Of a stretch of 64,000 nucleotides of DNA, positions 9,470 through 56,600 are shown in pieces. Made by a program: the position numbers and the translations under genes. How positions within the stretch are numbered: position 1 is the first letter of the stretch; each line of letters starts with the position of its first letter. The stretch covers positions 32,001 through 96,000 of the IMG/VR virus record IMGVR_UViG_2724679538_000004; one strand, given 5' to 3'. This DNA is from a virus. Taxonomy: Duplodnaviria > Heunggongvirae > Uroviricota > Caudoviricetes. The notes beneath the pieces are model-generated. The model worked only from the letters and a program-made list of their open reading frames with translations. It was not told the origin of the DNA and did no database searches.

Positions 9470-10525
9470 CTATTTGCGAGTCTTTGCCTTGCGCAACTCT
9501 TCGAGAAGCGCCAGTTCTTCTTTACTCAACATGACCATTTTGCCTTCTTTTTCGTCAGGCGCAACGTCGATAATGTCATCTTGATTCTCATCTGGGAGGC
9601 TATATTCCGTCTCATCATTATCGATTTTTGTTGATATTTGTGCCTGGCGTAACTTTGGCCGCCTATAGTGGATGACGAAGTAGACCGAGTTTCCGCGCTT
9701 AACTTCCGTGTAATCGAGATATCCTATCTCTCGCAGCTGTTCCATAGCCTTTCTTACCGTCGCATTCTGAGTAATAGTGCGACTTGTCAGATTAAGTCTG
9801 GCGCGTAAACGGGCTAGTGATATTGGTGCCGGATCAGGCGGCAAACTTTCAATAAAAGTATAAAGCGCCTGAGCGGATTCTTTTCTTGAGAGTTCGTTTA
9901 TAGCCCGGAGTTGCAGAAGAACCTTTTTGTCGAACTGGTAGAGTTCGAAAATCTTGGGATCTGCTTTCAGTTCGACCGTATCGTGCTTGACACTATATTT
10001 TGCCGTTTGCACAAGATGCGTTACGTAAAACTCATCAGAGCCTTTGCTACGGAACGAGATGGTATTTGTGGCAATACGGCTTAGCGAACTGTCCAGGCGT
10101 TTGCGTAACTTCGCTGATGACCTGGCGGTCGGAATGCCACACAGCCTTACAAACTCAACGAACGGCAACGTGACGGTATCGCCAACGACCTTGTGTTTGG
10201 CAAACGCGTGGATTATTCCCACCCACGTTTTAAAGTCGTTATCCATATCAAGCCGAAGGCCAGAGATCCTTATGTCTTCGTACCCTTCTGCTTTTGCCAG
10301 AGACAGCTGTTTGAGTTCAGCAGAGGCATCCATAGAGACCATTTGCCCCTTTCTTCCTCTGGATGTCGATTTCAGCGTCGGAACGAAGAGGCCCAGACGC
10401 ATCAAAGCAACAGGCTGAACAGTGTTATTAGTGTTAGGAACCAACGTAACAACTTCGCCTGTCTTTTTATCTGTTTCTGAAAATGCTTCAACGATCGCTA
10501 TGTTTTTATTGCCGTTTTCGCTCAT
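9470..10525 (-). CDS. repA: plasmid-type replication initiator RepA (iteron-binding, winged-helix)
   Basis: 351-aa protein flanked on both sides by iteron arrays; basic C-terminus; architecture matches P1/F-type replicons. Confidence 0.75.
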
Positions 10526-10570: not shown

Positions 10571-10695
10571 TTACAGTGGATAGTAGCACTCATCACAGCG
10601 GTTATCCTACCGTCTATAGTGGTTTTTCTCCTCTCTATAGTGGTTGCTTTGCTCCCTATAGTGGATTATTTGCTCTCTATAGTGGATATCGATCA
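10571..10695. repeat. iteron array, 4-5 direct repeats of about 21 bp (core CTCTATAGTGG) upstream of repA
   Basis: ctatagtggtttttctcctctctatagtggttgctttgctccctatagtggattatttgctctctatagtggatat. Confidence 0.8.
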
Positions 10696-10961: not shown

Positions 10962-11075
10962 GCTCTACTCTCTACAGTGGATATATACAGCTCTCCAGAG
11001 TGGTTGTTTTACTCTTCATAGCGGTTATTCTGCTCTCTACAGAGGTTACTTTGCTCTCCATAGTGGATGGCAACA
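10962..11075. repeat. iteron array, about 5 direct repeats (CTCTACAGTGG / CTCCAGAGTGG / CTCCATAGTGG)
   Basis: Direct repeats at about 22-bp spacing. Confidence 0.75.
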
Positions 11076-29580: not shown

Positions 29581-30006
29581 ATGTTAGGTTTCTTTAAAAA
29601 GAAAACTCGTAAAGCTGTTATCGAAGTCAAAAAAATGGAGAACCGTGATGCGGTTGAAGCCACTGTGTGGGGCGCGTATATGATCTCCTATTCCGATGGC
29701 ACATGCGATGCAAAAGAAATTTCCATTCTTGAGAAAACAATTGCAGCTCTGCCTGCGTTTTCTCCGTTTGCTGCTGAGATAGCCCAGATGAGTGCCAATA
29801 TCCGCGCTCAATACGAAGCCTCACCACGCCGAGCTAATGCTCAAGCTTTACGTGAACTGGCTGATGTGGCCGGGACTAATGATGCAGTAGATGTTCTGTG
29901 TCTGTGTATTGATATTGCCGATCAGGACGGTATTGGCGAGGAGGAAGAGTTGGTGTTGAAAAAAATCGCTCAGGCGCTCCAGCTTTCACTGGATGCTTAT
30001 CTCTAA
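29581..30006 (+). CDS. hypothetical protein (TerB-like fold suspected)
   Basis: 141-aa ORF with GGAAAAACAC RBS context; acidic C-terminus. Confidence 0.4.
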   Translation: MLGFFKKKTRKAVIEVKKMENRDAVEATVWGAYMISYSDGTCDAKEISILEKTIAALPAFSPFAAEIAQMSANIRAQYEASPRRANAQALRELADVAGTNDAVDVLCLCIDIADQDGIGEEEELVLKKIAQALQLSLDAYL

Positions 30007-30164
30007 TGCTTGAGAGATTCCGGCTTGTGATCGTCATTGCTCTTTTGGTGATGGCGGTGCTGGTGGATTTTACGGGAAAGATCATGTCTGTCATTTCTGA
30101 TGGCGTTCTTGTTGGTCTGGCGATCTACTTCGCTCGCCCTCTAATCCGTAATGCAAAGTGTTAA
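30006..30164 (+). CDS. small hydrophobic protein (about 52 aa; below the ORF-track cutoff)
   Basis: ATG overlaps the preceding stop; product MLERFRLVIVIALLVMAVLVDF...; followed by a terminator. Confidence 0.3.
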   Translation: MLERFRLVIVIALLVMAVLVDFTGKIMSVISDGVLVGLAIYFARPLIRNAKC

Positions 30165-30170
30165 TAACAA

Positions 30171-30190
30171 GGGCCGACTATGGCCCTTTT
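30171..30190 (+). terminator. rho-independent terminator (GGGCC-loop-GGCCC then TTTT)
   Basis: Hairpin plus T-run; overlaps the track ORF start at 30180, supporting ATG 30207 for the next gene. Confidence 0.6.
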
Positions 30191-30206
30191 GTTTCATGGA
30201 GCGCGT

Positions 30207-31022
30207 ATGTTTGAGATTTCAACACTCACTTCTACTACCAAAGGTTTTCACGATAAGCCTTCAATGACCAGTCAGGAGATTGCCGAGTTGGTTGGCAGTC
30301 GTCACGACAGCGTTAAACGCACCATAGAACGGCTGGTAAAAACTGGCGTCATTACTTTTCCACCAATGGTGGAAAAGCCCACCGCAGGTCGCCCTTCGAC
30401 GATGTACCTGTTTGAAGGCGATCAGGGCAAACGAGACAGCATTGTCGTAGTTGCGCAGCTGTCGCCGGAATTTACGGCACGTTTAGTTGATCGCTGGAGA
30501 GAGTTGGAGTCCATATATGGCGCAGCTGTGACTCCAGCGATACCTCGTACCTACAAAGAAGCTCTTGTTCATTTGCTTCATCAGGTTGAAGAAAACGAGC
30601 GCCTTGAAAAGAAAAATGAGGCTTTGGAAGTAGCGCTGTCAAATGCAAAGCCAAAAGCCATTCTGATGGATACGATTTGCGGAACCGCAAATGAACTTTA
30701 CGGGCTTAATGAAGCTGGGCGCATTCTCGGTACATCTGGTGTTGTTATGGGGGAATTTCTGGATTCTCTTGGCGACGTTTATGTAAAGCGCAAATACACA
30801 ACTATCAATCGTCAGTTCTTGAAGGCTTTCATTGACCGTGGCTATGGGAAAAATGTCGTGATCGGAACTGGACGTAACCAGGCAAAATTCACCTTTAAGG
30901 GGCTTTGCTTTGCGGCTGTGAAGCTGATTGCCGCAGGAAAAATAACCGTCAACTCCATCGAATATGAACCGTGCCGGGAACATGTTGAGCGTGAATTGAA
31001 GGGCGCAAAAAGTCTTCATTGA
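30207..31022 (+). CDS. phage antirepressor-like regulatory protein (Rha N-terminal domain plus KilA-C-like C-terminal domain)
   Basis: MTSQEIAELVGSRHDSVKRTIERL matches the Rha family N-terminus; GGAG RBS before ATG 30207. Confidence 0.65.
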   Translation: MFEISTLTSTTKGFHDKPSMTSQEIAELVGSRHDSVKRTIERLVKTGVITFPPMVEKPTAGRPSTMYLFEGDQGKRDSIVVVAQLSPEFTARLVDRWRELESIYGAAVTPAIPRTYKEALVHLLHQVEENERLEKKNEALEVALSNAKPKAILMDTICGTANELYGLNEAGRILGTSGVVMGEFLDSLGDVYVKRKYTTINRQFLKAFIDRGYGKNVVIGTGRNQAKFTFKGLCFAAVKLIAAGKITVNSIEYEPCREHVERELKGAKSLH

Positions 31023-39795: not shown

Positions 39796-40090
39796 AATGT
39801 CTGCTTTTTAACCAAACATACCCTCAATACTGCAACATCAGTGTCTTGCGAATCAAGATAGTGTGTATAGATTTTTCATGCAAGTGCATAAGTCTGTGGA
39901 TAACTCAGGAAGGAAAAAGTGACTTCCGCGCACTTTAGGCCGGACAAGGCCTTCGAAAAAGTCAATGGGAAGAAAAAATTTGTTAAAAATAACGTTTGTT
40001 TGAATTGTATATTTTATACCTGTCAATAGTTAGCATCTTATTAACATCTTTTTTAAGAGACAGAGTTTAAAAACATGTCGCTCCAACATA

Positions 40091-40110
40091 TACTGTATGT
40101 ACATACAGTA
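40091..40110 (+). promoter_or_regulatory. LexA operator (SOS box) TACTGTATGTACATACAGTA
   Basis: Perfect CTGT-N8-ACAG palindrome 17 bp upstream of the humD-like start. Confidence 0.85.
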
Positions 40111-40126
40111 TTAAGAGGCGAGTATT

Positions 40127-40516
40127 ATGGGATTCCCATCTCCTGCAGCGGATTATGTTGAAAGCCGTATTTCTCTTGATCGGCAGATAATTAGACATCC
40201 TTCAGCGACCTACTTCCTGCGAGCGGCTGATAGCCATCACCGCGAAGGAATATTGCAGGGGGCGCTGCTGGTGGTCGATTCTTCACTAACTCCGGTTGAT
40301 GGTTCACTGCTTGTATGTGCTATTGATGGGGAATTTCGTGTAAAAAAATACCGTAAGTATCCGCGTCAGTACCTGGAGGATTTAAGAACTGGCAAGAAGG
40401 AAGCATTGCCAAAGGATGACGATGGATGCACTGGCAGTACTGCCGTGTTTGGTGTCATCACTCACATTATCAACGACGCAAGAAGTGGCGAATTTGATGA
40501 TTGTCCTGTGATGTAG
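40127..40516 (+). CDS. humD: UmuD'-like protein (P1 HumD-like; begins at the position equivalent to the UmuD cleavage site)
   Basis: N-terminus MGFPSPAADYVE matches UmuD residues immediately after the Cys24-Gly25 cleavage site; conserved VDGEF(R/T)VKK; preceded by a LexA box; no umuC neighbour. Confidence 0.8.
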   Translation: MGFPSPAADYVESRISLDRQIIRHPSATYFLRAADSHHREGILQGALLVVDSSLTPVDGSLLVCAIDGEFRVKKYRKYPRQYLEDLRTGKKEALPKDDDGCTGSTAVFGVITHIINDARSGEFDDCPVM

Positions 40517-40560
40517 ATAGAAAGCCCTCGTTTGTATGAGGGCTTCTAGGTAAACACAAA

Positions 40561-41304
40561 TCACTGCATGTTGCCGAATTTTTTGTTAAGGCTTTTTCGT
40601 ATTGTCTCTATGGTTTTCTCCCTATCTGAATATAGTTCGCTAACTACATAGTCCATAATCTCAAAAGCACCTTCGATATCTTTGATCCGAACTTCATCAA
40701 ACGTATGACTGCCTGCATTCCCCAAGAACTTTATCGCCAAAAGATTTTGAGCAAGTTTGCTGCCCTCTTCCGGGATTTTTTCGATACGATGGTGCAATCG
40801 GATTGTCTTACCTTTATCATTTTGCGTAGGTATCCCCATAGAGGTAAGGATATTTTCTACAGCGATTCTGATTAGGTTTGCTGCGGCACCTTGCTGCATT
40901 AAAAAAATGGAAAAAGCAGCTTTCAGGGGGCCACTTACTTCATCCGGGCAGTTCTCTGGAATTTGAAAAACATTCAAGGAAGGAACAAAGCAAAGAGGTT
41001 TGTACCATTGATAATATTCGTCTGCCATTTCCTCTGGTTGGTAATCTCTATCCCATCCTGCCTTTCCTACGCAGGCAACCGCTTCGCCACATTTTGCTCG
41101 TGAACATTTGGCCATACAGCTGAAATAGGACTCAGACATATCGTAATCAAACCAATCTTCATTTTGTGCTTTCCTGGTACCTAAAGACTCCTCTTCAACA
41201 AAACTATCTTGCATGATTTCCAGAGTCTTTTGTCCGCAGACCGGACAAGGCCAGTCCACATGTTTATCGCTGTAAAATCGATGGGAAATTTTATGAATAG
41301 CCAT
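40561..41304 (-). CDS. zinc-ribbon protein with C-terminal HEPN/DUF4145-like segment (tentative)
   Basis: N-terminal CPVCG ... CMAKCSRAKCGEAVAC zinc-ribbon pattern; C-terminal LLAIKFLGNAGSHTFDEV resembles the R/K-x-x-G-N-x-x-x-H helix pair of DUF4145-type HEPN domains; only reverse-strand gene in its neighbourhood. Confidence 0.5.
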   Translation of the reverse strand: MAIHKISHRFYSDKHVDWPCPVCGQKTLEIMQDSFVEEESLGTRKAQNEDWFDYDMSESYFSCMAKCSRAKCGEAVACVGKAGWDRDYQPEEMADEYYQWYKPLCFVPSLNVFQIPENCPDEVSGPLKAAFSIFLMQQGAAANLIRIAVENILTSMGIPTQNDKGKTIRLHHRIEKIPEEGSKLAQNLLAIKFLGNAGSHTFDEVRIKDIEGAFEIMDYVVSELYSDREKTIETIRKSLNKKFGNMQ

Positions 41305-41448
41305 TTATTTCGCTCCATGCATATTGGCCGAAATGAGTTCAAACGATACCAATATGAATAATAGATGCGTTACTTTAAGACACTGTGGATTAAATACAAA
41401 GCATGGCTACCAACAGAAGGAACAAAAGATACTGGTTACAAATACCCG

Positions 41449-41514
41449 TAAATAAATTGTTTTCTACCTTTTCTTAATTGTGATAATAAACCACACAAGA
41501 AAACAAATTGTTTA
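41449..41514 (+). promoter_or_regulatory. conserved promoter/operator block (second copy of the 35524-35580 element, ending in AGAAAACAAATTGTTTA)
   Basis: Near-identical to 35524-35580. Confidence 0.5.
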
Positions 41515-41526
41515 GGAGTGGCAAAA

Positions 41527-41826
41527 ATGCTGAACATTACCCAAGCCTACCAGGTGGCATTGATTAGTGCATCTCATACATCAGAGGAAGATGCTCGCCG
41601 ATTCATGATCGCAAGCAATGAGCTGGATTGGGTTTCACAAATTGACGGCGGTTGTATTGTCCACGCCTGGTTACAGGATGATGTCTGGAAAGACAACTTG
41701 CGTCGATATGGTATATCCGAAGGCGCAATTGCTAACATTCAGAAAGTACTTGATGTAGGCTTTGACTCTGTACATTTCGATTGTGGCGCACCGGTCGTTG
41801 AAGGGCTTGAGTGCTGGAACTGGTAA
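41527..41826 (+). CDS. hypothetical protein
   Basis: AGGAG 8 nt before ATG 41527. Confidence 0.5.
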   Translation: MLNITQAYQVALISASHTSEEDARRFMIASNELDWVSQIDGGCIVHAWLQDDVWKDNLRRYGISEGAIANIQKVLDVGFDSVHFDCGAPVVEGLECWNW

Positions 41827-41862
41827 TCCGGCAAACGTTCCATACTATGTAACGGAGAATTT

Positions 41863-42048
41863 ATGCTTAAAGAGGACTCATATCTACTAAAGGCGCTTGA
41901 AATGCGTGGCGTTGAACCTACAGTGAAAAACGCTCACGATATCTACCTTCAGTTTTCACCGGAGCTGAAACGGCTCATAAATCAATACGGGGTTAATGAC
42001 TCAAGTGTTAAAGCAATGATAGATGATGAATTAGACCATCTCATCTAA
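41863..42048 (+). CDS. hypothetical small protein
   Basis: GGAG 6 nt before the ATG; 61 aa. Confidence 0.45.
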   Translation: MLKEDSYLLKALEMRGVEPTVKNAHDIYLQFSPELKRLINQYGVNDSSVKAMIDDELDHLI

Positions 42049-42200
42049 TCGTTTCCTATGATAATGGTTTTCACTTTGAGATTGTTATTTTTCATAGCCA
42101 AAGCTGATGTTTGTGGAAGGTGGATTGATAAACGGATGCGTATTTAGGTTATACAAGTGAGAAAATTGATAATATATAAACGCGATTTTTATGTGATGGA

Positions 42201-42770
42201 ATGGATGTAATGGAAACCCAGAACCAACAAACAAAACCTCTGAATAACATTTATGCGTGGATTCTAGCGTTCATGCCTTTCTTCTTTGCAGTATCGCCGG
42301 AAGAGTATACCAATTACGCTATTATAATTGGGGGTGTAACTACCATCGGTTTGTTAGTAGCTGACAGAATGGCTCTATCGGAGTCTGGCTGTGAACCACC
42401 TTCAATTCTATGGGGGGTATTCCTCCTGCCTGTCTATCTCTGGAAGCGCGCGACTATTACAAAAGGCAGCAGAGTGCCATTTATCATAATCGTTGCGTCG
42501 CTGGCTTGGGTTATCTTCATCGGCATCCCACACAAGGACGAGGTTGCTCTTGAAGAAGCAGCCTGCCCTCTCGTGACAACTATTCTGAAAGAGAATAACG
42601 GTTCGACTGCACCAAAATGTATGAAGGTGACAATAGAGGACAAGGTGACGGATAAGTTCTATAGAGCAACGGCTACACTAGACAATGGTAATGACATTAA
42701 CATTACTCTGGAACTTACCGGCGACAGGAACTTCTACGTCCGTGTTCCAAATGTTTATCTGAACAACTAA
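42201..42770 (+). CDS. integral membrane protein (about 3 TM segments) with C-terminal soluble domain
   Basis: Hydrophobic segments IYAWILAFMPFFFAV, AIIIGGVTTIGLLV, FIIIVASLAWVIFIG. Confidence 0.5.
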   Translation: MDVMETQNQQTKPLNNIYAWILAFMPFFFAVSPEEYTNYAIIIGGVTTIGLLVADRMALSESGCEPPSILWGVFLLPVYLWKRATITKGSRVPFIIIVASLAWVIFIGIPHKDEVALEEAACPLVTTILKENNGSTAPKCMKVTIEDKVTDKFYRATATLDNGNDINITLELTGDRNFYVRVPNVYLNN

Positions 42771-42889
42771 CGGTTGCAACTTATTGATAATGGCGGTCAC
42801 AATTTGATTCTTTTCTATAAGAATCCGTTGATCGCCACTACTCCCCTTCCATACCTGCAACCACATCCTTAAATATCAATTAGTTATAG

Positions 42890-43766
42890 TTGTTTATACC
42901 AATAAGAAAACAACTAAATAACAGATCAACGAAATGTCAATGCTTTCGCCCGATTTGGTCTATAAAATTGACGTTTTCACACATCACTTCTTATACCCGC
43001 AATCCTACGCAGCAGACAGCGCCACAGCGTCCAATTTTCACCACAGATGACCCAACAACTACCAATAAAAACACACGCTCAAAATCGCTCCCGTTGCGTT
43101 ACACAACCATATAAACAACTTGTTTTCAGGCATAACAAAACAACTAAATAACACATATGCCATTCCCCAAAACAACCAACCTCTTTATGGCAGGCTACCG
43201 AAAAGACCCACCTCTTCTTCCCAGGCTACCGGACAACCAACCTAACTTTCACAGGCAATTCGAAACCTCCATACGCGCGATACCCACGACACGCCATTCC
43301 CCAAATAGCGAAGAACCACCGAAACCCCAACGAAGCTTGTAACCGCAAGGATTTCCTCAATCCCAAAAGACACGAAACAGAACATTCGAGGGAAACGCCA
43401 TTACCCAATACACGAATAACTACAAAAGCCTTTCACGCACTCCATACAAGCAACTCAAACACAATAACGAAAGGAATCGCCCACCTGCCATTACTCCATA
43501 CACGGAGAAGAACAATCACCAAAACGTCGAGAACAACCCAGAGAAGAACCACCGCAAAACGAACGAAACCATATAAACCGACAGAGAGAACTACACACCC
43601 AATTCACCAACAGAAATAGTCGCCGTATAGAACGTTCAGGGAGGAGTGAGTATTAACGCCTATAGAGAGCTTGAGACAGATAAAACACGAAGAAAACACA
43701 ACATGTATAACGGAGAAGCCAGGTATGTATAAGTGGGGAGTGGAGGAGGGGTGTCGCCTCCTTTTT
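42890..43766 (+). ncRNA. A+C-rich, G/T-poor tract with ~100-bp-spaced GCCATT(A/C)CCCAA-type repeats; candidate long non-coding RNA(s) ending at hairpin GGAGG-loop-CCTCC plus T5 (43742-43766)
   Basis: Strong strand-asymmetric composition; promoter-like AAAACAACTAAATAACA at about 42913 and 43138; only low-complexity ORFs without RBS. Confidence 0.3.
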
Positions 43767-43830
43767 CGTATTTATTCAACTCCTGATTTTATCCCCCCGT
43801 AAAACCCCTACGGTCAGCCTTCGGTCCATA

Positions 43831-43970
43831 CAGGGAAAAGGTTGCATCCCGCTACAGAAACGGCTGGGTTGCCTTCGGGGAACGGCTGGAGGTTTTCAGG
43901 GAAACGGTCGAGTTGCCTGTGTGGGTTTCGGGAAAAGGCTCGATGCCGGTTCAGGAACGGTGGCGTACCG
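43831..43970 (+). repeat. array of about six ~21-bp direct repeats with core (C)AGGGAAA(A/C)GG / GGGAACGGCT (GGA-rich)
   Basis: cagggaaaaggttgcatccc, cagaaacggctgggttgcc, ggggaacggctggagg, cagggaaacggtcgagttgcc, cgggaaaaggctcgatgcc, caggaacggtggcgtaccgg. Confidence 0.6.
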
Positions 43971-44295
43971 GTATAGCGAGAGGGAGAGTTGCGGCTACCC
44001 ACCTGTAATGTGCGGGAAGAAGGGAGACTCTCACGTATAGGCGAACCTACTTCCCGCTGGATTCCCTCTGAATGCCCAGCTACAGCGTAATTGTGCCAGA
44101 CAGTCCGCGGGTCACAATCGATTTCAGTAGGTTTTCGGGGAGAGGATTATTCTGCCCACCAGCTCCCTGCGGCCAGTAAATCAGAATAATGTAAAAAGTG
44201 CCCACGGTACTGAACCTGAAAAGTCACTACTAAAACTGCATTTACCGGAATAAAACTCTTTTTCACCTATGTGTTATTGCGATAATAACACCAAC

Positions 44296-44313
44296 GAGAA
44301 AACAAGTTGTTTA
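44296..44313 (+). promoter_or_regulatory. promoter/operator motif GAGAAAACAAGTTGTTTA
   Basis: Palindromic AAACAA-N-TTGTTT core immediately upstream of RBS GGAG. Confidence 0.45.
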
Positions 44314-44323
44314 CGGAGTGGTA

Positions 44324-44635
44324 ATGAATACCTCATTGGTTCTTGGTCTTGCAGAAGGTCAGGACAGAAAAGAAAAGCCAACTTTGATGGGACACCTCAC
44401 ATTGTTGGATATCGTAGCGAACGGAACTTCTATTCGACTGTTTCGTGAAAAAGCTATTACCTTCGACAAAGTGAATTTAACGCGCTATGTGATGGTTGTT
44501 CGTCGCCAGCGAGGAAGAGGGTGGATGTCAGTTCAGAAAATGTGGCCAGAGGACCAGCTTGAACTGGCACTGATGGAAGTGAACCGCGTAGCCCAGCAAG
44601 AAATCCAACGAGCTTCTGTTCAGGCAGTGGCTTAA
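44324..44635 (+). CDS. hypothetical protein
   Basis: GGAG 5 nt before ATG 44324. Confidence 0.5.
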   Translation: MNTSLVLGLAEGQDRKEKPTLMGHLTLLDIVANGTSIRLFREKAITFDKVNLTRYVMVVRRQRGRGWMSVQKMWPEDQLELALMEVNRVAQQEIQRASVQAVA

Positions 44636-44761
44636 GCATGTGCAAGCAGTAGTTAGTCGAGTGTACGACAGCCCTGATTCCTTACAGGGCTTTTTTGTAT
44701 TGTAAGTAACTACTTACAATAATAGAATTACCTCGTTCGTTAACTTACATACAGGGAGAGT

Positions 44762-45160
44762 ATGATGAGCGTAAAACGCGAAAACCTGACAATCGATATG
44801 TACTATGCCTCTGAAAAAGCAGAAGACGAAGCGGTTGCAAAAATTACCGTGATGATTCGTGACAATGAATCTGGTGCAGAGGTACAAACAAGCACTCTTG
44901 TACGCACAGGAACAGGCGAAGAGGCGACTTATGCCGTCGGCTATCAGAATATCAACGATGCCACGGACCCGCTGTTACTTAAACTGGAAAACCACTTCCG
45001 CAGTGTCGATAAGGTGCTTTTTGAGAAGCTGATGGAAGCCGTGGATGAGGTGTATACCTCAAACCTCAACAGCAATACTACCTGGATGGGACAGTATGGC
45101 CTGCGAATTACCACCGGCGCTCAAGTAGAAACCGTCATCCCCGAAAGCGTATTCGCTTAA
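44762..45160 (+). CDS. hypothetical protein
   Basis: GGGAGAG RBS; 132 aa. Confidence 0.5.
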   Translation: MMSVKRENLTIDMYYASEKAEDEAVAKITVMIRDNESGAEVQTSTLVRTGTGEEATYAVGYQNINDATDPLLLKLENHFRSVDKVLFEKLMEAVDEVYTSNLNSNTTWMGQYGLRITTGAQVETVIPESVFA

Positions 45161-45277
45161 TCCTCTTTGAATGGCGCGTAAACCGCGCCATTTTCTTATG
45201 CCCGATAACAATTTGTTTTCTGCCTTATCTGATTTGTGAAAATGATTTCACTGAAGCAACTTAATAAGGAAACCATC

Positions 45278-45652
45278 ATGGAACTTGATATCTATATCGA
45301 GACGCAGCCTAAAAACGATCTGAATAACGAGGAATCCAGAAGACAGGTTGCTTACTTCCGCAAGTTCAATGCGCTCGTTGGGTGGATGGAGCGCAACGTA
45401 GGTGAAGTCGAAAATTGTGAGCTTTTAGAATTAACGATGAATGACATTTGTTTTCTGAAAGCTCATTTGATGCACATAAACGAAAGTAATTGCGAAGAGT
45501 ACTTACCTACACAGGAAGGGTTTTTCTTCGGCAGTCAGGAGTACGATGAAGGTTACTGGCATGACGTGGATAAGCTGAAAAAACTGGTGGAAGACCTGAT
45601 TAGGAACCACGACTTCCACAATAACAGACTGACATTTTGCGCCTGGTGGTAA
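45278..45652 (+). CDS. hypothetical acidic protein
   Basis: AAGGAAA RBS before ATG 45278. Confidence 0.5.
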   Translation: MELDIYIETQPKNDLNNEESRRQVAYFRKFNALVGWMERNVGEVENCELLELTMNDICFLKAHLMHINESNCEEYLPTQEGFFFGSQEYDEGYWHDVDKLKKLVEDLIRNHDFHNNRLTFCAWW

Positions 45653-45989
45653 ATATGGGGGATTTTAGAAAGCGTCTTAAGGAAAGAACTGAGCAGGCCA
45701 GGAGGCAAAACGCGTTTTCTGTTATCCGGTACGCGAAACAATTCAGTCGGAACAACAAGTCAGTTGAGGAAAAGATCCTCAGCGTAATAGGACGATAATT
45801 ATTGAGGCTACCAGCATGGATAGCCTCACTGACTTTTCTTATAACCGAAGGTTAGTTTTGAAACCTGGCTAATGACTTCCAGTACCTGTCTTGATAATTC
45901 AGCCTGCATTAACTTCTTTTCTGCCTTATCTACACTGCGATAATTACACCAACAAGAAAACAACATGTTTACGCAGTGAGGATATGCAC

Positions 45990-46271
45990 ATGACTGATTT
46001 CACCATTACTACCAAAGCACAAAATGTATTCCTTGAATCATGGCTGGACTTGCCGGAAACAGAACAGCAAGAAATGGATCATGTGGAATATGACGAGCAG
46101 GTAAGCACGCGATTCTTCCACTTTGAGGGCTGCGTTTACGATATTGCCGACTTCATGCGAGATGACCGCTTCCCTGAATGGCACGCAAGCTATCCACTTA
46201 ACGCCTTCGCCATGCTGATGATCCGTGTGGATGACTCAGGGGATACCATCGATGTCGGTTTGCTCCACTAA
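45990..46271 (+). CDS. hypothetical acidic small protein
   Basis: GAGGA RBS 8 nt before ATG 45990; 93 aa. Confidence 0.5.
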   Translation: MTDFTITTKAQNVFLESWLDLPETEQQEMDHVEYDEQVSTRFFHFEGCVYDIADFMRDDRFPEWHASYPLNAFAMLMIRVDDSGDTIDVGLLH

Positions 46272-46301
46272 ATAATAAGGGACCACCAGCATTGGTGGCT
46301 C

Positions 46302-46574
46302 TTATATCATTTTTGCGAGCTTATTCATTTTGGTGAAGTCAATTGGCAATTCGGCCAAAGGTATCAAATAGTCTTTTTGTGCCCAGAAGTTTGGAGATCT
46401 GCCCACTACATACGAAAGCCGATAAGCGTCTTCATCGGTAATCGGCTTTCTTTGTTCTAGTATAGCTTCAGCATAGTCGATACTAACCGCCATGCTGCGA
46501 GCCAATAATTCAACCCCAATACCGTAATCGTCATAAATGGCATCAAGAAATTTTTTCACATCAAGTTGGGACAT
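46302..46574 (-). CDS. XRE/HigA-like helix-turn-helix regulator (tentative)
   Basis: GRSPNFWAQKDY resembles the G-x-S-P-x-F-W motif of HigA/VapI-type HTH proteins. Confidence 0.45.
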   Translation of the reverse strand: MSQLDVKKFLDAIYDDYGIGVELLARSMAVSIDYAEAILEQRKPITDEDAYRLSYVVGRSPNFWAQKDYLIPLAELPIDFTKMNKLAKMI

Positions 46575-46769
46575 ATGATTATCTCCTCAAATAAGCCAAG
46601 TTTTTATTATATAACGATATTTTTCGATTGTGGGTAATATGATTACACCCGCAGGCTAAAAACACCAACCTCTTACCTCCAGGCTACCGATTAACCCACC
46701 TGTTCCCGTCCGGCTACCGCAACTTTCCACTTTGACGCCTTATTCGTACAACGATAATTAACACCAACA

Positions 46770-46786
46770 AGAAAACAATTTGTTAT
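46770..46786 (+). promoter_or_regulatory. promoter/operator motif AGAAAACAATTTGTTAT
   Basis: Same element family as 44296, 45204, 45954. Confidence 0.45.
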
Positions 46787-46805
46787 TTACGATAAGGAAT
46801 TAATC

Positions 46806-47288
46806 ATGAATTTTATCGTTACTGTAAACGCACCCGCACATGGCAATATCGCTGTAACGTTCTCTGACATTGAAAAACGAGTACTTGGTGCATGGCGCGA
46901 CAATGAGACGGTAGAACTGTCAGCACAAGAAAAATGCATTATTGCACGCGACATCATTGGTAATCGTCGTTACTCGCGGGTATTTGAGAAAGCGTATGTG
47001 GTAAATTCTGGATTCGGAACGTTCGTCTTTCCGGTGCGCTCCGGGCGATTCTGCCAGTCCAAGCTGATTGAGTTCGCTACGCAGATTTCTGTCTGGATTA
47101 AAACTCAATCGTCGTTCAAATTTTCCGACGATGAAGCAGTATCGCAGGGGATGCGGATCGCCAACAATGCGATAAAATGCAAAAACATTACGTATGCCGC
47201 TGGCGTTGACACATGGAAACTGTTTTGCGCTAACTTTATGCTGAATGTATACGCAAGCAACCGCATCCACATCCTTGATGGCGTGTAA
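46806..47288 (+). CDS. hypothetical protein
   Basis: AAGGAAT RBS; 160 aa. Confidence 0.5.
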   Translation: MNFIVTVNAPAHGNIAVTFSDIEKRVLGAWRDNETVELSAQEKCIIARDIIGNRRYSRVFEKAYVVNSGFGTFVFPVRSGRFCQSKLIEFATQISVWIKTQSSFKFSDDEAVSQGMRIANNAIKCKNITYAAGVDTWKLFCANFMLNVYASNRIHILDGV

Positions 47289-47294
47289 CTGAGA

Positions 47295-47320
47295 AGAGGG
47301 CCAGAAACGGCCCTTTCTCT
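47295..47320 (+). terminator. rho-independent terminator (AGAGGGCC-AGAAAC-GGCCCTTT)
   Basis: Hairpin with T-rich tail after the stop at 47288. Confidence 0.6.
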
Positions 47321-47324
47321 ATAG

Positions 47325-47455
47325 CCACCAGCTGCCGCAGGGAAATTTTCAGAAACGGCGAGGAACGCATTCATGAACCGACGGGAAACGGCCAAGATTT
47401 TTTCGGGAAACGGCTGCATTCGCCTTTATGTAGAAAAACATCGGGAAGCTGGTGG
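47325..47455 (+). repeat. second GGA-rich repeat array (GGGAAATTTTC, AGAAACGGCG, GGGAAACGGCC, GGGAAACGGCT) enclosed by 9-bp inverted repeat CCACCAGCT / AGCTGGTGG
   Basis: Same core motif as the 43831-43970 array; flanking inverted repeat about 110 nt apart. Confidence 0.6.
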
Positions 47456-47880
47456 AATCCAACCAGCGGTTGTCGGACAGGTGAGCGCGGAAAATAATGA
47501 TGACTTTCGTCGCCTGAGACATACAGATTTCTTTCATAGCGTAATCACATACGTGATTAAGTAGTGTGATTATGTGAAAAATCACGCGCACATAATACGC
47601 GAGCGGATAAAGAACAACACAAAATGCCGATCCGCGCCGACAAATAAACGCGGATCACATAGCAAGACTAATAACCAATGATTAGCCATACATTATAACG
47701 CAATATAACGCGATTTAAGCGCGTTAATGTGTTAAGTAATGGGTATGTACTGGTAAGGATGTAAAAGCGCGTCTATGGTGTTATTTTGGCGCTTATTTTT
47801 ATGTTGTTGGAGTGAGTCAAAGACAATAAAAAAACGCGCCATTGATGGCGCGTTATTGTGGAAGTATTGGAAACGAAAAA

Positions 47881-47899
47881 AGCGCCCATAGTGGGCGCT
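47881..47899. terminator. hairpin AGCGCCCATAGTGGGCGCT flanked by A-run and T-run (bidirectional)
   Basis: Identical copy at 48151-48168; lies at the 3' end of the minus-strand gene 47904..48134. Confidence 0.6.
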
Positions 47900-47903
47900 C
47901 GAT

Positions 47904-48134
47904 TTATTTATGTAAACTGATTTCAAATCCCATTTCTACAAACGCTTTCAGCATTAAAAATATATCAGCGTCGTTCACCTCAGCTTTTTTGCGCTCCTGG
48001 TCGCTCAATAAGTCAATTTTGCGCGTCGTTTCATCTATAAGCTCGACTGCGCGCCCAGCGTAACCAGCGATCCCAGCGATCCGATTTACATAATATTCAT
48101 TGTGGACGTTAACGCCAGCGATAAGAATAAACAT
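47904..48134 (-). CDS. hypothetical protein
   Basis: 76-aa ORF bracketed by two copies of the same terminator hairpin. Confidence 0.4.
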   Translation of the reverse strand: MFILIAGVNVHNEYYVNRIAGIAGYAGRAVELIDETTRKIDLLSDQERKKAEVNDADIFLMLKAFVEMGFEISLHK

Positions 48135-48150
48135 GATTAAGCTCCTTAAA

Positions 48151-48168
48151 AGCGCCCATAGTGGGCGC
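48151..48168. terminator. hairpin AGCGCCCATAGTGGGCGC (second copy)
   Basis: Between minus-strand genes 48182..48832 and 47904..48134. Confidence 0.55.
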
Positions 48169-48181
48169 CAGATTCCATTAA

Positions 48182-48832
48182 TTACGCTTTGAAAGCATCA
48201 GCCAGATAGTTATAGAAATCATTTTTAATAAAGCGATATTGCTGCGTACCAGCTTTTGCGCTTCCCATTCCTTTGACTTTCTCAACAAGTCCAAGACGTT
48301 CACAAAGATTAATTAGCTGATTAGCTTGAGTATAGCCAGCGTCAAGTTTAATCTCACACGCTTTTTTAGCTTCATTCATTAAATCGAAAACAGCGCCATT
48401 TGTGAACGTCTCGATCTCGTCGTTAATCATATCGATTAAAGCGAATACACGAGATCCTGACATATCAGCGACGGAATATACACATGTTCCAGCTTTAATA
48501 GATTTAACAAGATAAACCAGCTTTTCCAGTGAATAACTATTAGTCATAGCGTCACGGAAAAATACTTCTGGGGCTTGTTTACTTGCTTTAATCGCATAGT
48601 AGAAAACAGAACATAATTTATCGTCTTCTACTGCGTTAACCACGTTGTTGATGAAGTAAGCAAGCTTAGTGGTCGCAGCTTGCATATTTGCTTTGTCTGC
48701 TTTAGTGTGCGTACCATTTTTATAATGTTCGTTATATGTTTGAGTTGCCAGATCTGCTTTTTCGCGCAGCTCATCGGATACAATGGAAGCAGCTTCAATG
48801 ATGGATTTTTTAGAAATGATAATGTTAGCCAT
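48182..48832 (-). CDS. hypothetical protein (AT-rich codon usage)
   Basis: 216-aa ORF with GGAAAATTATC RBS context. Confidence 0.55.
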   Translation of the reverse strand: MANIIISKKSIIEAASIVSDELREKADLATQTYNEHYKNGTHTKADKANMQAATTKLAYFINNVVNAVEDDKLCSVFYYAIKASKQAPEVFFRDAMTNSYSLEKLVYLVKSIKAGTCVYSVADMSGSRVFALIDMINDEIETFTNGAVFDLMNEAKKACEIKLDAGYTQANQLINLCERLGLVEKVKGMGSAKAGTQQYRFIKNDFYNYLADAFKA

Positions 48833-49115
48833 GATAATTTTCCTTATGTAAATTTAAAATTTATTGTCGTTAGCGTCTTCGCTTTCGACGAGTTCAATTA
48901 TCGATACGCGAAAAAAGATTTCAAGTGTTTTTTTAAATTTTTTTGCAGGGACGAAAGTCCTAGAAATAAAAGCGAGATCGTCGAAGGTGTTCCCTAAATA
49001 AATAATCGATTCCGGCTTTTGACCTTATATATATTTAGGTTATTTAATTTATAGAATATAAAGAAGTGACATGAAAAATAATAACCGGACTTAGCCGGTT
49101 ATTAACCTTATAGAT

Positions 49116-49424
49116 TTATTGGACAGACTCTACAGCCTTACGATTGGTGTCAAATAGCGCATCAACGAACTGTGCCGATGACTCGCTAGATTCGCAATCC
49201 AACATTGCCCGTTCTTCATTTGCCACTTTCTTACACAGTTCCACATTCTCACCTATCGCTTTTCCTGCTTTTACGGCTGCCGAAAATTGATACATGCAAA
49301 CTGATACATTCTGAGACGTTGAGCACACGTCATTCATCAGCGACTGAATGACAGGCTTATAGTCCATTGCATTTGCCGCAACTGAGCAAAGTAAAAATAA
49401 TGGTGGTAACAATATCGATTTCAT
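49116..49424 (-). CDS. small secreted Cys-containing protein
   Basis: Signal peptide MKSILLPPLFLLCSVAANA. Confidence 0.5.
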   Translation of the reverse strand: MKSILLPPLFLLCSVAANAMDYKPVIQSLMNDVCSTSQNVSVCMYQFSAAVKAGKAIGENVELCKKVANEERAMLDCESSESSAQFVDALFDTNRKAVESVQ

Positions 49425-49427
49425 AAC

Positions 49428-49952
49428 TCAAAAAGGCAAAATTCGTTCAACCCAATCGAACAAAACAACTATTTTTCTACCGTTCTCGACACGTAGTGTA
49501 ACCTGACAAGCATCTGCGCCTGCTGACACCCCCTCAATTTCACGGCCATCCGCCATGTACACCCTTATAGATTTGTTTGCTTTATGGGCCTGGTTGCAAA
49601 TTGCAAAAAAATCACGGCGTGATGGCCGATTGTCAACATAATCAGGGTGAACTGTTAATCGACCTTTGAAATCGTGAGCGATACCGTCAACCACACCTGA
49701 TTCAATTGTACTAATGCGTTCAAGTGGAAGCCTTATACGATTTTCTTTGTCAAAAGGGGCTGGGCAAAGATCAACTTTGTTACGAGATGGCATGAGACCA
49801 TAAACGTACATGCAAAACGCCTGGCCATCTTCGAGAGTGGCCCTTACAGGAATTTGTTCTCTGCGCCAGAACATCAGGAGGTTTTCAATATTCTTATAAT
49901 CTCGCGGCCAGACCTCCGCTGGCACGCCGTAGGTGATGTCTTTAGTCGTCAT
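49428..49952 (-). CDS. hypothetical protein
   Basis: ATG at 49952, 4 nt after the lipoprotein stop; the longer track ORF would overlap the upstream gene. Confidence 0.5.
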   Translation of the reverse strand: MTTKDITYGVPAEVWPRDYKNIENLLMFWRREQIPVRATLEDGQAFCMYVYGLMPSRNKVDLCPAPFDKENRIRLPLERISTIESGVVDGIAHDFKGRLTVHPDYVDNRPSRRDFFAICNQAHKANKSIRVYMADGREIEGVSAGADACQVTLRVENGRKIVVLFDWVERILPF

Positions 49953-49956
49953 GTCA

Positions 49957-50376
49957 TTATAAAGTTGTTGGCAATATATCCATTGTACCATCCCAGGTTG
50001 TGAAGACCCGATATGTTTTAGCATCGTTTTGTTTTAGCCTTATTTCTCGCTCCATCCGAGAAGGGTTAAATGCGCAAAGCCCTGAGCTTTCAATTGATGT
50101 GCCAACTATCCACTCACCTTCATTAAGAAAGAAGGTGACTTTTTCTCCTGGTTTCAACTTGGCGGATGTCTCACCATTGATAAAAATGGAGGCATAACAG
50201 CCTGAGCCTACAAGACCTTTGTCTCGAACAATCGTTAATGTTGATACATTTGGCGTCTGGTATTTGAAGATTCTTTCTTGAGGCGCAACTTTCGCTTTTG
50301 AAACTGAGATAGAGGAGGATGAACACCCAATTAGAGAGGCCCCAAACATTAAAATAATGAATTTTGTAGCTTTCAT
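49957..50376 (-). CDS. lipoprotein
   Basis: MKATKFIILMFGASLIGCSSS is a signal peptide with lipobox LIGC. Confidence 0.6.
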   Translation of the reverse strand: MKATKFIILMFGASLIGCSSSSISVSKAKVAPQERIFKYQTPNVSTLTIVRDKGLVGSGCYASIFINGETSAKLKPGEKVTFFLNEGEWIVGTSIESSGLCAFNPSRMEREIRLKQNDAKTYRVFTTWDGTMDILPTTL

Positions 50377-50400
50377 AGTACCTAACATATTAATTCATCG

Positions 50401-50943
50401 TTATTTATTGATTAGTGTTCTCTTGTAAATATCTACCAGAAGATCGTCTCTTTTAATATCGGTGCAGATATCATCGAATGTCAATGTTTTCGATAATATG
50501 CTTGCATTGTACTTTTCTATGAAACATTTTAGCGCCAGGTGGTCCTTGAAAATGAATGAAAAACCATATGATGAATCGCTATCATCTATGTATCTTTTGG
50601 CTTTAGGATAACCGTATAAATTTGAATGTAATTCTAATTTACCAGGCGACACACCATCACATGAATTCATAATCGAGAACAAACACGATAAATTGTATGG
50701 GTAAAATACAATACCGCAATTGGTTTTTACCCCCTCAATATCTTTAACATATATATAGTGTTCATAATCGTCTTTATATGAAGCCTTAAGCTTATATCTG
50801 ATTAGTTTATGTTCGCCATTTTGTATTGGAGATAGATATGCCTGTTTTGCTAAACAAGATTTTTTTGACTTATAATATGTATGAATGCATTCTTTAATCT
50901 GCCTTGCACTCAAATAGTTATTGTCAATATTTAGCTTTCCCAT
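50401..50943 (-). CDS. hypothetical protein (Lys/Asn/Tyr/Ile-rich, AT-rich codon usage)
   Basis: 180-aa ORF, first gene of a four-gene reverse-strand cluster. Confidence 0.5.
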   Translation of the reverse strand: MGKLNIDNNYLSARQIKECIHTYYKSKKSCLAKQAYLSPIQNGEHKLIRYKLKASYKDDYEHYIYVKDIEGVKTNCGIVFYPYNLSCLFSIMNSCDGVSPGKLELHSNLYGYPKAKRYIDDSDSSYGFSFIFKDHLALKCFIEKYNASILSKTLTFDDICTDIKRDDLLVDIYKRTLINK

Positions 50944-51043
50944 ATAGCTCTATAAACTGAAACCAAAACGCTTGTTAATAGCCTACAAACCTCGTTCAGC
51001 CAATCAAGTTTTTTTCTCAGCCGGAGGCTTGCGCTTATAAAAA

Positions 51044-51059
51044 TGTGATCAATATCACG
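51044..51059. promoter_or_regulatory. CRP-like site TGTGATCAATATCACG upstream of the reverse-strand cluster
   Basis: Matches TGTGA-N6-TCACA at 9 of 10 positions; about 100 bp upstream of the start at 50943. Confidence 0.35.
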
Positions 51060-51262
51060 CATTGTCGCTCACTACATACACGTGAACTCTCACAATCTTC
51101 TAGTTACGCCTGATTGATTTATAGCCTTTTTGGTGAAAACAAGAGCAAATTGTGAATTTTATTTAATATCAGAGGATAATTACTTCAACAACATCATTGA
51201 TGTGCCTCTTTTGACAAGTAAGCACATCATAATCTTAGTAATTAGAGGAAGAAGATAGAACG

Positions 51263-51559
51263 TTACGGTAGCCTGCTAAGGATTTCGTCCAGATCTTCCT
51301 TAGTCAAATTTGAGTTTTCATAAATCTGCATAATCCTTTCGCGAGCTTTAGCAGAAGCTTTTGCAGTTGCGCCCAAAGAAGAAGCAATTTTGTCAAACTC
51401 GGCCATCGGCATCTTTTCAAGTACAACATTGATGATTTCAGACTTTGACAGTTTTAGGTTTTTGTCTTTCAGTTTGGCTTTAAATTTTGTTAGTTTGTTG
51501 TTCGCCTGTTCAGTTAATGCGACCTGACAATACGTTGTTTTTTTCTCGCTCATAGTCAA
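51263..51559 (-). CDS. hypothetical protein
   Basis: 98-aa ORF immediately downstream of the helicase gene on the same strand. Confidence 0.45.
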   Translation of the reverse strand: MTMSEKKTTYCQVALTEQANNKLTKFKAKLKDKNLKLSKSEIINVVLEKMPMAEFDKIASSLGATAKASAKARERIMQIYENSNLTKEDLDEILSRLP

Positions 51560-56333: not shown

Positions 56334-56600
56334 ATGACGTTAACCGATAAACAAAAGGACATTATCAAAACGCTCAATCTCGGTTATGAACGAGGACATC
56401 TACTTGATCTGGACGAATTGCTTGAAGTTTTGCCCTACAAAACATCTAAGCAAAGTATCCAGTTCTCTATTCGCGCACTGATCAAAAAAGGGCTGGTGGA
56501 GAAAGGAAACACTCGCCAGCGCAGTGATACTCGATATCACCGTCGTACTCTTGGGTTAACTACTTTAGGTCGAGCACGAGCCAAATTACTGGTGATGTAA
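56334..56600 (+). CDS. small basic protein, probable winged-helix DNA-binding protein
   Basis: 88-aa ORF with GGAT RBS; basic C-terminus. Confidence 0.4.
   Translation: MTLTDKQKDIIKTLNLGYERGHLLDLDELLEVLPYKTSKQSIQFSIRALIKKGLVEKGNTRQRSDTRYHRRTLGLTTLGRARAKLLVM

Follow-up and report, generated by a model that had tools for sequence, protein, structure and literature searches.

In the temperate phage P1, the C1 immunity regulon is made of many C1 operators scattered over the phage-plasmid genome, and these operators are asymmetric 17-mers of the form ATTGCTCTAATAAATTT. Partition-tied global regulators are represented by omega of pSM19035 and by KorA/KorB of RK2, which has twelve 13-bp palindromic OB sites. 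In the leading region of the IncN plasmids pKM101/R46, the CUP repeats, reportedly described by Delver and Belogurov in 1997, control ardA, ardB and other genes. In that regulon the module is shut off by plasmid-encoded repressors and some of the genes are anti-restriction genes. The DNA-mimic and anti-restriction proteins (Ocr, ArdA, Arn, T7 gp5.9 and DMP12 of Neisseria) were also compared as closest known systems. In the present study, a cassette of small genes at positions 44,324 to 47,288 of a 64,000-nt stretch of viral DNA (positions 32,001 to 96,000 of IMG/VR record IMGVR_UViG_2724679538_000004), the whole of which is referred to as the window, has been compared with these systems. The window was found to belong to a phage-plasmid of the SSU5/pHCM2 type, a siphovirus. 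The kind of system is known (dispersed phage-plasmid operators and arrays of small early genes), but the operators and protein families found here have not been described. The cassette and the repeated element in front of its genes are real and functional-looking. Based on the observed anatomy, statistics, conservation and low lysogenic expression in a relative, we give a probability of about 0.5 to the reading that this is a conserved, repressor-controlled cassette of independent units under two dispersed operators, whose effector products would act at establishment.

Two palindromes are referred to throughout, type-1 (AAACAA-N-TTGTTT) and type-2 (GTAAGT..ACTTAC). The features of the cassette, with lengths in amino acids (aa), isoelectric points (pI) and Shine-Dalgarno (SD) sequences, are as follows, the promoters and terminators being predicted.

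44278-44323, plus strand: module of G1, with extended -10 TGCGATAAT (44278-44286), type-1 palindrome AAACAAGTTGTTT (44300-44312) and SD GGAG
44324-44635, plus strand: gene G1, 103 aa, basic, pI 10.0, PHROG 5125 (unknown function), 56-95% identity to orthologues
44660-44697, plus strand: intrinsic terminator of G1 from the terminator scan, hairpin and T-run, -15.8 kcal/mol, z -4.2
44700-44728, plus strand: G2 promoter TTGTAA-17-TAGAAT from the promoter scan, overlapped by the palindrome TGTAAGT-AACT-ACTTACA (44701-44718)
44762-45160, plus strand: gene G2, 132 aa, acidic, pI 4.5, PHROG 2473, the most divergent gene of the cassette
45169-45196, plus strand: terminator hairpin of G2, -15.6 kcal/mol, z -5.3
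45206-45243, plus strand: partial module of G3, with inverted type-1 copy TAACAATTTGTTT (45206-45218) and extended -10 TGTGAAAAT (45235-45243), without a downstream palindrome
45278-45652, plus strand: gene G3, 124 aa, acidic, pI 4.7, PHROG 7971, a broad unnamed family
45655-45798, plus strand: gene G3b, 47 aa, basic, pI 11.3, starting 2 nt past the G3 stop
45799-45832, plus strand: terminator hairpin of G3-G3b, -15.1 kcal/mol, z -4.1
45936-45989, plus strand: module of G4, with extended -10 TGCGATAAT (45936-45944), type-1 palindrome AAACAACATGTTT (45958-45970) and SD GAGG
45990-46271, plus strand: gene G4, 93 aa, very acidic, pI 4.1, net charge -15, PHROG 1845
46275-46305, both strands: bidirectional terminator hairpin of G4 and G5, -17.0 kcal/mol (plus strand) and -12.8 kcal/mol (minus strand)
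46302-46574, minus strand: gene G5, 90 aa, orphan HigA/XRE-like helix-turn-helix (HTH) protein, a lineage-specific insertion without toxin partner
46753-46805, plus strand: module of G6, with -10 GATAAT (46753-46758), type-1 palindrome AAACAATTTGTTA (46773-46785) and SD AAGGA
46806-47288, plus strand: gene G6, 160 aa, basic, pI 9.2, PHROG 1641, in SSU5-like elements only
47291-47319, plus strand: terminator hairpin of G6, -17.7 kcal/mol, z -4.3

The five plus-strand genes of the initial annotation are all present; G1 had been given 104 aa, and G3b, which is annotated in the related phage-plasmid Cyrano as CYRAN_109, had been overlooked. A -10-like hexamer is found ahead of every unit, with the TG of an extended -10 in most of them and GATAAT only in G6, and in the G1 orthologues of relatives the extended -10 reads TGGTATTAT. 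A stable hairpin closes each of the units (-15 to -18 kcal/mol, z -4 to -5.3). At the sequence level the units are thus not only individually promoted, as had been claimed, but also individually terminated. A search of 40000-51500 against Rfam gave only a sub-threshold chance match.

The type-1 core extends to a palindrome of 15-17 bp, G-AAAACAA-N-TTGTTT-AC. The string ACACCAACAAGAAAACAA was matched 7 times at up to three mismatches against 0.13 matches expected, and the 13-bp palindrome is present in 15 copies in the window at no more than one mismatch. Fourteen of the 15 are outside mechanically called open reading frames (ORFs; P about 3e-11), and the fifteenth is coding solely via a TTG-start extension of the G4 ORF. 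All copies are upstream of plus-strand genes, and those downstream of a -10 end 11-30 nt ahead of the curated start codons. At some promoters (41450, 35524 and 45206) a second, inverted copy lies over the -35 region, standing right after the preceding terminator; the copies at 41450 and 41501 are 51 bp apart. Each cassette gene had been described as having its own copy of the element, which is correct for the full element at G1, G4 and G6, but G3 has only the upstream inverted copy and a -10, and G2 has none. Moreover, the element is not special to the cassette and is rather a genome-wide operator. It also precedes a 141-aa ORF at 7462, nrdB, a TciA-like gene, ORFs at 31129, 32444 and 35580, the DUF5983 gene at 41527 and terS (two sites, 56719 and 56744), and in Cyrano it is found ahead of parA, a helicase gene and cobT as well. 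Among IHF, PurR, PhoP, RcsB, CRP, DnaA and LexA, we know of no consensus that fits AAACAA-N-TTGTTT. A literature search for the operator motif strings found no paper, and an operator scan of viral contigs returned mostly contigs of about 100 kb.

The type-2 palindrome is present at G2 inside the promoter spacer, in the form given above, and the relatives have the canonical GTAAGTACTTAC at the same place. As GGTAAGTACTTACC it has at least 12 sites in the window (2787, 6282, 12039, 16704, 21432, 26409, 28637, 34150, 53164, 58685, 60200 and 62123), usually right after a (G/A)ATAAT hexamer. Replication and structural genes stand behind these sites, which precede those for a single-stranded DNA-binding protein (SSB), nrdA, thyX, dam, a ParB-like gene, the portal gene and others. 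In Cyrano one copy is placed 32 nt ahead of CYRAN_45, the CI-like repressor gene, and because of this position type-2 is predicted to be the probable master-repressor operator. Since the two palindromes are distinct, two regulators are probably involved. A repeated and conserved site overlapping the predicted promoters of several operons is found here, as in a temperate-phage repressor-operator regulon.

The 3.2-kb cassette region matches 658 plasmids, with an identity of about 89% at best, which are mostly of about 100-110 kb, non-mobilizable (632 of the 658) and IncFIB (pHCM2-type), and whose hosts are Klebsiella, Escherichia, Yersinia, Enterobacter and Salmonella. Among phages it matches Cyrano, CMS-2020a and PhiR41_1, and SSU5 at the protein level. 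As read via the curated Cyrano annotation, the window contains replication and recombination genes (UvsY, a gp32-like SSB, RepA, SbcCD, NrdAB and ThyX), an accessory region and the first part of the structural module. The cassette had been placed in an early or leading-type region. The leading region has to be given up, since the element is non-mobilizable and not a conjugative plasmid and therefore has none; of ssb, psiB and ardA, which together with a nearby oriT and single-strand promoters would mark a leading-region anti-defence island, none is in the cassette neighbourhood.

The gene order G1-G2-(G3)-G4-G6 is conserved among the relatives. G1, G2, G4 and G6 were found in all intact relatives examined and thus form part of the core of the SSU5 group, not of its variable cargo; pMT1 keeps G4 and G6. 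G3, G3b and G5 are patchy, G3 and G3b being confined to the E. coli and Klebsiella lineages. The Klebsiella orthologue of G3 is preceded by a full module, and G4 stands directly behind it without a promoter of its own; in E. coli, G3-G3b seem to have been inserted into the ancestral G4 promoter. G2 diverges fastest, with 62% identity to close relatives versus 94-98% for G3, G4 and G6. For the promoter alignment, the 130 nt ahead of each orthologue were taken from Cyrano, pYLPI6a, one plasmid each of Klebsiella and Enterobacter, pHCM2 of S. Typhi and pMT1 of Y. pestis. At orthologous promoters the -10, the type-1 operator and the ribosome-binding site (RBS) are almost invariant, and the sequence further upstream diverges freely. 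The layout of the G1 promoter is kept upstream of the orthologues in five relatives with diverging flanks, and the G4 module is kept in Cyrano, pYLPI6a, pHCM2, pMT1 and Enterobacter. A 7-kb metagenomic contig from a distant relative carries adjacent homologues of G2 (32% identity) and G4 (40-41%), and has type-1 motifs before three other small genes.

Expression of the orthologues was taken from the RNA sequencing of LB-grown LF82 lysogens and of macrophage infection reported for Cyrano (PMC9928086, supplementary table S1), in which the lysogen background median is 9.8 normalised counts and the authors' 5-fold 'moron' cut-off is 49. In the lysogen the counts are 12 for G1, 17 for G2, 5.7 for G3, 58 for G3b, 6.7 for G4 and 25 for G6. 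Only the G3b orthologue CYRAN_109 is above 5x background, at about 6x, and it is listed among the morons by those authors. After 1 h in macrophages the orthologues of G1, G2, G3, G4 and G6 are up by 1.9-3.1 log2, G3b by 1.0 log2 and the adjacent CYRAN_105 by 4.3; the SOS-boxed UmuD-like gene of Cyrano is up by about 4 log2 at the same time. The terminase, portal and capsid genes change by no more than 1.2 log2 at 1 h and rise only at 6 h (PMC9928086). Late expression, which would be at odds with the initial annotation, was not seen, as the Cyrano orthologues rise before the structural genes. These counts fit with repression in the plasmid state and with non-late expression. As a separate observation, the G3b orthologue is about 10-fold above the gene just upstream (58 versus 5.7 counts) across a gap of 2 nt, which points to an internal promoter, to a stable 3' fragment or to an antisense/small RNA.

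The plus-strand products had been called mostly acidic, which is the case for G2, G3 and G4 (pI 4.1-4.7) but not for the basic G1 and G6. That they belong to no recognised family has been borne out: they have only PHROGs of unknown function, with nothing above noise in Pfam and NCBIfam, and among all seven products searched in Pfam, NCBIfam, PHROGs and PADLOC the HigA-like match of G5 is the only functional one. Confident matches of cassette products to housekeeping phage proteins, which would speak against the initial annotation, were not found in Pfam, NCBIfam, PHROGs, the PDB or the fold search with G3. The DNA-mimic anti-restriction families ArdA, Ocr, gp5.9 and KlcA gave no match to G1-G6 at an expect value (E) up to 1 in Pfam and NCBIfam. 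PDB sequence searches with single sequences and family profiles gave no match of note for the plus-strand products, and no PADLOC defence model was matched among the cassette products.

The G3 family has 65 matches, down to 31% identity, with the near-invariant motifs YWRKxN, DNCE and PTQEGFFFGSQEYD. Its AlphaFold model is confident (pLDDT 92), and Foldseek comparison of this model with the PDB gave nothing at E 0.001 or better. In a non-significant fold comparison the predicted fold resembles YfbM and DMP12; this likeness to small protein-binding proteins is one of predicted fold and gives no functional assignment. For G4, a word-indexed search found 35 matches, all SSU5-like and often mis-annotated as 'ABC transporter', and an exhaustive HMMER search found 86 representative sequences at E <= 0.001, mostly of about 90 aa and 28-47% identical, with no Pfam or PDB sequence match among the members. 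Several distant G4 homologues lie on contigs too short for a comparison of their neighbourhoods. Pfam assigned no family to 59 G3-family and 69 G4-family members. Acidity is a family trait in both, with a pI below 5.5 in 56/59 and 62/69 members, respectively. G2 has 14 matches, and G2 and G6 are restricted to SSU5-like elements. Distant G3 homologues are found inside long same-strand arrays of small unknown genes, beside genes for DUF932, DUF6876, GP88, DUF1281_C and a methyltransferase. Neighbourhoods of this sort are found in phage early regions and plasmid establishment regions.

In the proposed mechanism each unit would be read from a sigma-70 promoter (mostly with an extended -10) and would consist further of an RBS, a small ORF and an intrinsic terminator. 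In the plasmid-prophage state the units would be held off by two dispersed operator systems, type-1 acting between the -10 and the RBS at G1, G4 and G6 and through a truncated derivative at G3, and type-2 acting inside the promoter spacer of G2. A dimeric DNA-binding repressor encoded elsewhere on the element would occupy the type-1 sites. A burst of cassette expression would then be expected on entry, before the repressor builds up, or early after induction, and the products would serve as small protein- or nucleic-acid-binding effectors against host or competitor functions during establishment.

No clear type-1 repressor gene was found within the window, which also lacks genes for three proteins of Cyrano, namely the ParG-like protein, the CI-like CYRAN_45 and the small winged-helix CYRAN_37. 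The best lead for a type-1 repressor is the ParG-like ribbon-helix-helix (RHH) protein predicted in the partition operon. A perfect type-1 site is present downstream of the parA promoter in Cyrano, S. Typhi pTy004_01 and K. pneumoniae pKp1604-pro, and the second gene of this operon, annotated as RelE/ParE, looks like one for a ParG-type RHH protein. The annotation of Cyrano (OV696614) 29975-30334 as 'RelE/ParE putative toxin' is a probable mis-annotation which is repeated in many records; a small ParA adjoins. The ParG-like protein is 90-100% conserved in 736/797 of its PLSDB records, which matches the near-invariant type-1 operator, and its gene has 89 counts in the Cyrano lysogen (PMC9928086). 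Another candidate is an RHH-like gene at 51263-51550 (minus strand), downstream of a UvsW-like helicase gene and present in 788 plasmids including those of Yersinia, the Cyrano orthologue of which is at 12x background in the lysogen (PMC9928086). A further candidate is an 88-aa winged-helix gene at 56334-56600 (plus strand), directly upstream of the paired type-1 sites 56719 and 56744 before terS. The FljA-family protein encoded at 49428 to about 49949 is also among the candidates.

The cassette genes are probably early or establishment genes, and their products are most likely host-takeover effectors and possibly anti-defence proteins. Both of these roles had been proposed in the initial annotation. 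Neither housekeeping matches nor late expression came up, so the proposal stands to that extent, but no anti-defence family was matched, two products are basic and most of the genes are core; an anti-defence role is plausible but unproven. The conserved acidity of the G3 and G4 families, the DMP12/YfbM-like predicted fold of G3 and the fast evolution of G2 lend it weak support. A narrower version, in which unrecognised takeover or anti-defence effectors from at least two broad acidic families (those of G3 and G4) would be fired in a burst on entry, under a so far undescribed genome-wide circuit with a partition-linked RHH global repressor acting at AAACAA-N-TTGTTT, is put forward tentatively and is rather unlikely.

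A number of points weigh against the repressor-controlled establishment cassette. The promoters are consensus-level predictions, and a generic sigma-70 scan gave 7 matches in the region versus 12.3 in shuffled sequence. G1 and G6 are basic, and G4 is predicted as a beta fold without a structural neighbour in the PDB. The core status of G1, G2, G4 and G6 is unlike that of typical fast-turnover anti-defence cargo. The RNA sequencing comes from an 87% identical relative, from bulk, non-synchronous lysogen cultures, with counts near the detection floor. The ParG-like protein is outside the window and is missing from Y. pestis pMT1, where type-1 promoters persist. Lastly, parA is expressed in the lysogen despite its type-1 site, and therefore the operator is not simply 'off'.

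The strongest of the other explanations takes the products as ordinary accessory or housekeeping factors in the core early or middle regulon of the element, such as small regulators, replication or recombination helpers and maintenance proteins. It is somewhat improbable in our estimate, but it has to be taken seriously, since the greater part of the cassette belongs to the core of the group. The order G1-G2-G4-G6 is conserved group-wide including pHCM2, with G4 and G6 in pMT1; the type-1 operator also precedes nrdB and terS and, in Cyrano, parA, the helicase gene and cobT; the basic G1, G3b and G6 could bind nucleic acid; the strictly conserved polar motifs of the G3 family resemble a defined functional site; and the cassette is flanked by iteron-like arrays. 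However, no replication, recombination or regulatory family was matched in Pfam, NCBIfam, PHROGs or the PDB, G3 and G3b are lineage-limited, G5 is present in almost none of the relatives, and the divergence of G2 is far faster than that of its neighbours.

That these are classical morons or lysogenic-conversion genes, expressed from the plasmid-prophage for host benefit or phage exclusion, appears improbable. The order of promoter, gene and terminator is that of a moron as far as can be read from the sequence, the G3b orthologue is at 6x background in the Cyrano lysogen and counted among the morons there (PMC9928086), and a PD-T7-4-like candidate defence gene and an FljA-family protein are nearby. 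On the other hand, the orthologues of G1, G2, G3, G4 and G6 have 5.7-25 counts against the median of 9.8 and the cut-off of 49, no PADLOC defence model was matched, and operators overlap every predicted promoter.

It is still less probable that the downstream type-1 copy acts as an RNA element. This idea draws on the FljA-family gene at 49428-50024 (minus strand, likely start near 49949), which matches Pfam Flag1_repress at E 2.5e-83 with a weak Hfq-like match, is labelled 'transcriptional regulator' by PGAP and is kept in 4/5 of the SSU5-like relatives examined and in Cyrano; its protein may be a repressor of host flagellin or may target mRNAs of the element itself. The element is always in the predicted 5' untranslated region (5'-UTR) in fixed orientation, just 5' of the RBS, and the Salmonella fliC 5'-UTR, as read from genomes, shares CCAATAA, CAAGTTGT and AAGGAAAA with the type-1 sites. 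The weight-matrix scan, however, does not single out the fliC leader: in its ungapped form the leader was not first in the Salmonella loci and was first in one Citrobacter locus only, with a score of about 0. The near-perfect palindrome of 15-17 bp is expected of a dimeric DNA binder, the inverted copies at 41450, 35524 and 45206 are upstream of the -10, where transcription would not reach, and a transcript of the element could fold only into a weak A-U-rich hairpin of 5 bp. Two ideas were tried in this connection. The type-1 element as a target of FljA was not supported, the likeness to the fliC leader not being significant in the weight-matrix test, and the 180-aa ORF at 50401-50943 was rejected as the 'transcriptional regulator' of the relatives, an annotation which belongs to the FljA-family gene. 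A chance similarity or duplication remnant without regulatory role, which the partial G3 copy resembles as a by-product of the insertion of G3-G3b into the ancestral G4 promoter, is effectively refuted by the excess of matches (7 observed versus 0.13 expected), their location almost exclusively outside ORFs and the cross-genus conservation while flanks diverge.

The initial annotation had also identified G5 as a HigA/XRE-like HTH gene inserted on the opposite strand, with which both the similarity matches and its absence from nearly all relatives agree. In the PDB it is matched best by the sequence of HigA from E. coli (2icp, E 2.2e-5), it scores 32 bits against TIGR02607, under the cut-off of 47.7, and it matches PHROG 1381 'plasmid antitoxin with HTH' at E 9.4e-8. 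G5 is missing from Cyrano and pYLPI6a, as it is from almost all of some 660 related plasmids, and the G4-G6 spacer is 534 nt here versus about 205 nt in Cyrano and pYLPI6a. Its DNA was found in no PLSDB plasmid and no complete E. coli genome; in E. hormaechei pD-CRECL423 this slot is taken by a homologue of 77.5% identity, likewise solitary. No HigB or other toxin gene is beside G5, as no ORF separates it from the G6 promoter or from the G4 terminator, and neither a conserved toxin partner nor another origin of G5 was found across plasmids and E. coli genomes.

Several features are present around the cassette. About 900 nt within 42890-44100 are G-poor and C/A-rich and without ORFs. Six copies of cAGGGAAACGGc with a 22-nt period are found at 43835-43975 and four more just past G6 (47304-47430), and GGCTACCG repeats are at 43193, 43224, 46682 and 46712. 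These iteron-like arrays are possible centromere, second origin or incompatibility sites, and motifs like them are seen in the relatives and in a distant contig (L007). At 40561-41304 (minus strand) a DUF4145 protein matching the PADLOC model PD-T7-4 (E 3.9e-5) sits where Cyrano has a MinD/ParA-like gene, and on this phage-plasmid it is a candidate for a single-gene defence against phages. A canonical LexA box, CTGTATGTACATACAG, is at 40093-40108, just upstream of a gene for a UmuD-like S24 peptidase without DNA-binding domain (40127-40516), the Cyrano orthologue of which is highly expressed, reaching about 12 log2 in macrophages. The double type-1 module (41450 and 41501) is ahead of the DUF5983 gene at 41527-41826, which is followed by an acidic 61-aa ORF (41863-42048) with a sub-threshold match (E 0.005) to the T7 gp5.9 RecBCD inhibitor. 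Farther away, 21-bp direct repeats ..CTATAGTGG.. are found in two clusters (10593-10685 and 10995-11066) upstream of the RepA gene at 9470-10525 (minus strand), and these are the replication iterons to be expected there.

Phage-plasmids of the SSU5 type are common in E. coli, Klebsiella, Shigella and Salmonella Typhi (pHCM2), and part of Y. pestis pMT1 descends from this family; the regulation and most of the small genes of these phage-plasmids are so far uncharacterised. The two dispersed operators provide a testable map of how the element splits its genes into regulons. Screening of SSU5-group elements with models of known anti-defence systems yields very few of them (bioRxiv 10.1101/2025.09.12.675607). 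The cassette gives a short candidate list for anti-defence or establishment functions missed by known-model screens, and if the proposal is true, its effectors would fill the near-absence of known anti-defence genes in the widespread clinical SSU5/pHCM2/pMT1 plasmids. The G3 and G4 families reach well past these plasmids, and therefore any function found for them in the cassette would serve to annotate many genes of metagenomes and phages.

In comparison with the P1 C1 regulon, the present element is likewise a plasmid-prophage with many dispersed operators overlapping the promoters of separate operons, which applies to type-2 (at least 12 sites and the Cyrano repressor gene) as well as to type-1 (15 sites); unlike P1, it has two distinct palindromes with no sequence relation to C1, and its repressor is only predicted. 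With omega and KorB it shares a short palindrome at many promoters of one replicon, including the partition operon, whose product may act as repressor. Here, however, the candidate is a ParG-like RHH protein and not a ParB/KorB CTPase, the site sequence is unrelated and the binding is only predicted. The CUP regulon similarly has a repeated promoter module before several individually transcribed small genes, but it lies in a conjugative leading region, whereas the present element is a non-mobilizable phage element whose module is shorter (about 50 bp) and of unrelated sequence, with no ArdA, ArdB or ArdK homologues. G5 is like the HigA antitoxins in being an XRE-type HTH protein of about 90 aa and differs from them by having no adjacent HigB and a score below the NCBIfam HigA cut-off. 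Finally, the units resemble the phage morons of Hendrix and colleagues in having their own promoter and terminator; morons, however, are defined by expression from the repressed prophage and a patchy distribution, whereas in the Cyrano lysogen most of the cassette genes are silent, and four cassette genes belong to the core of the group.

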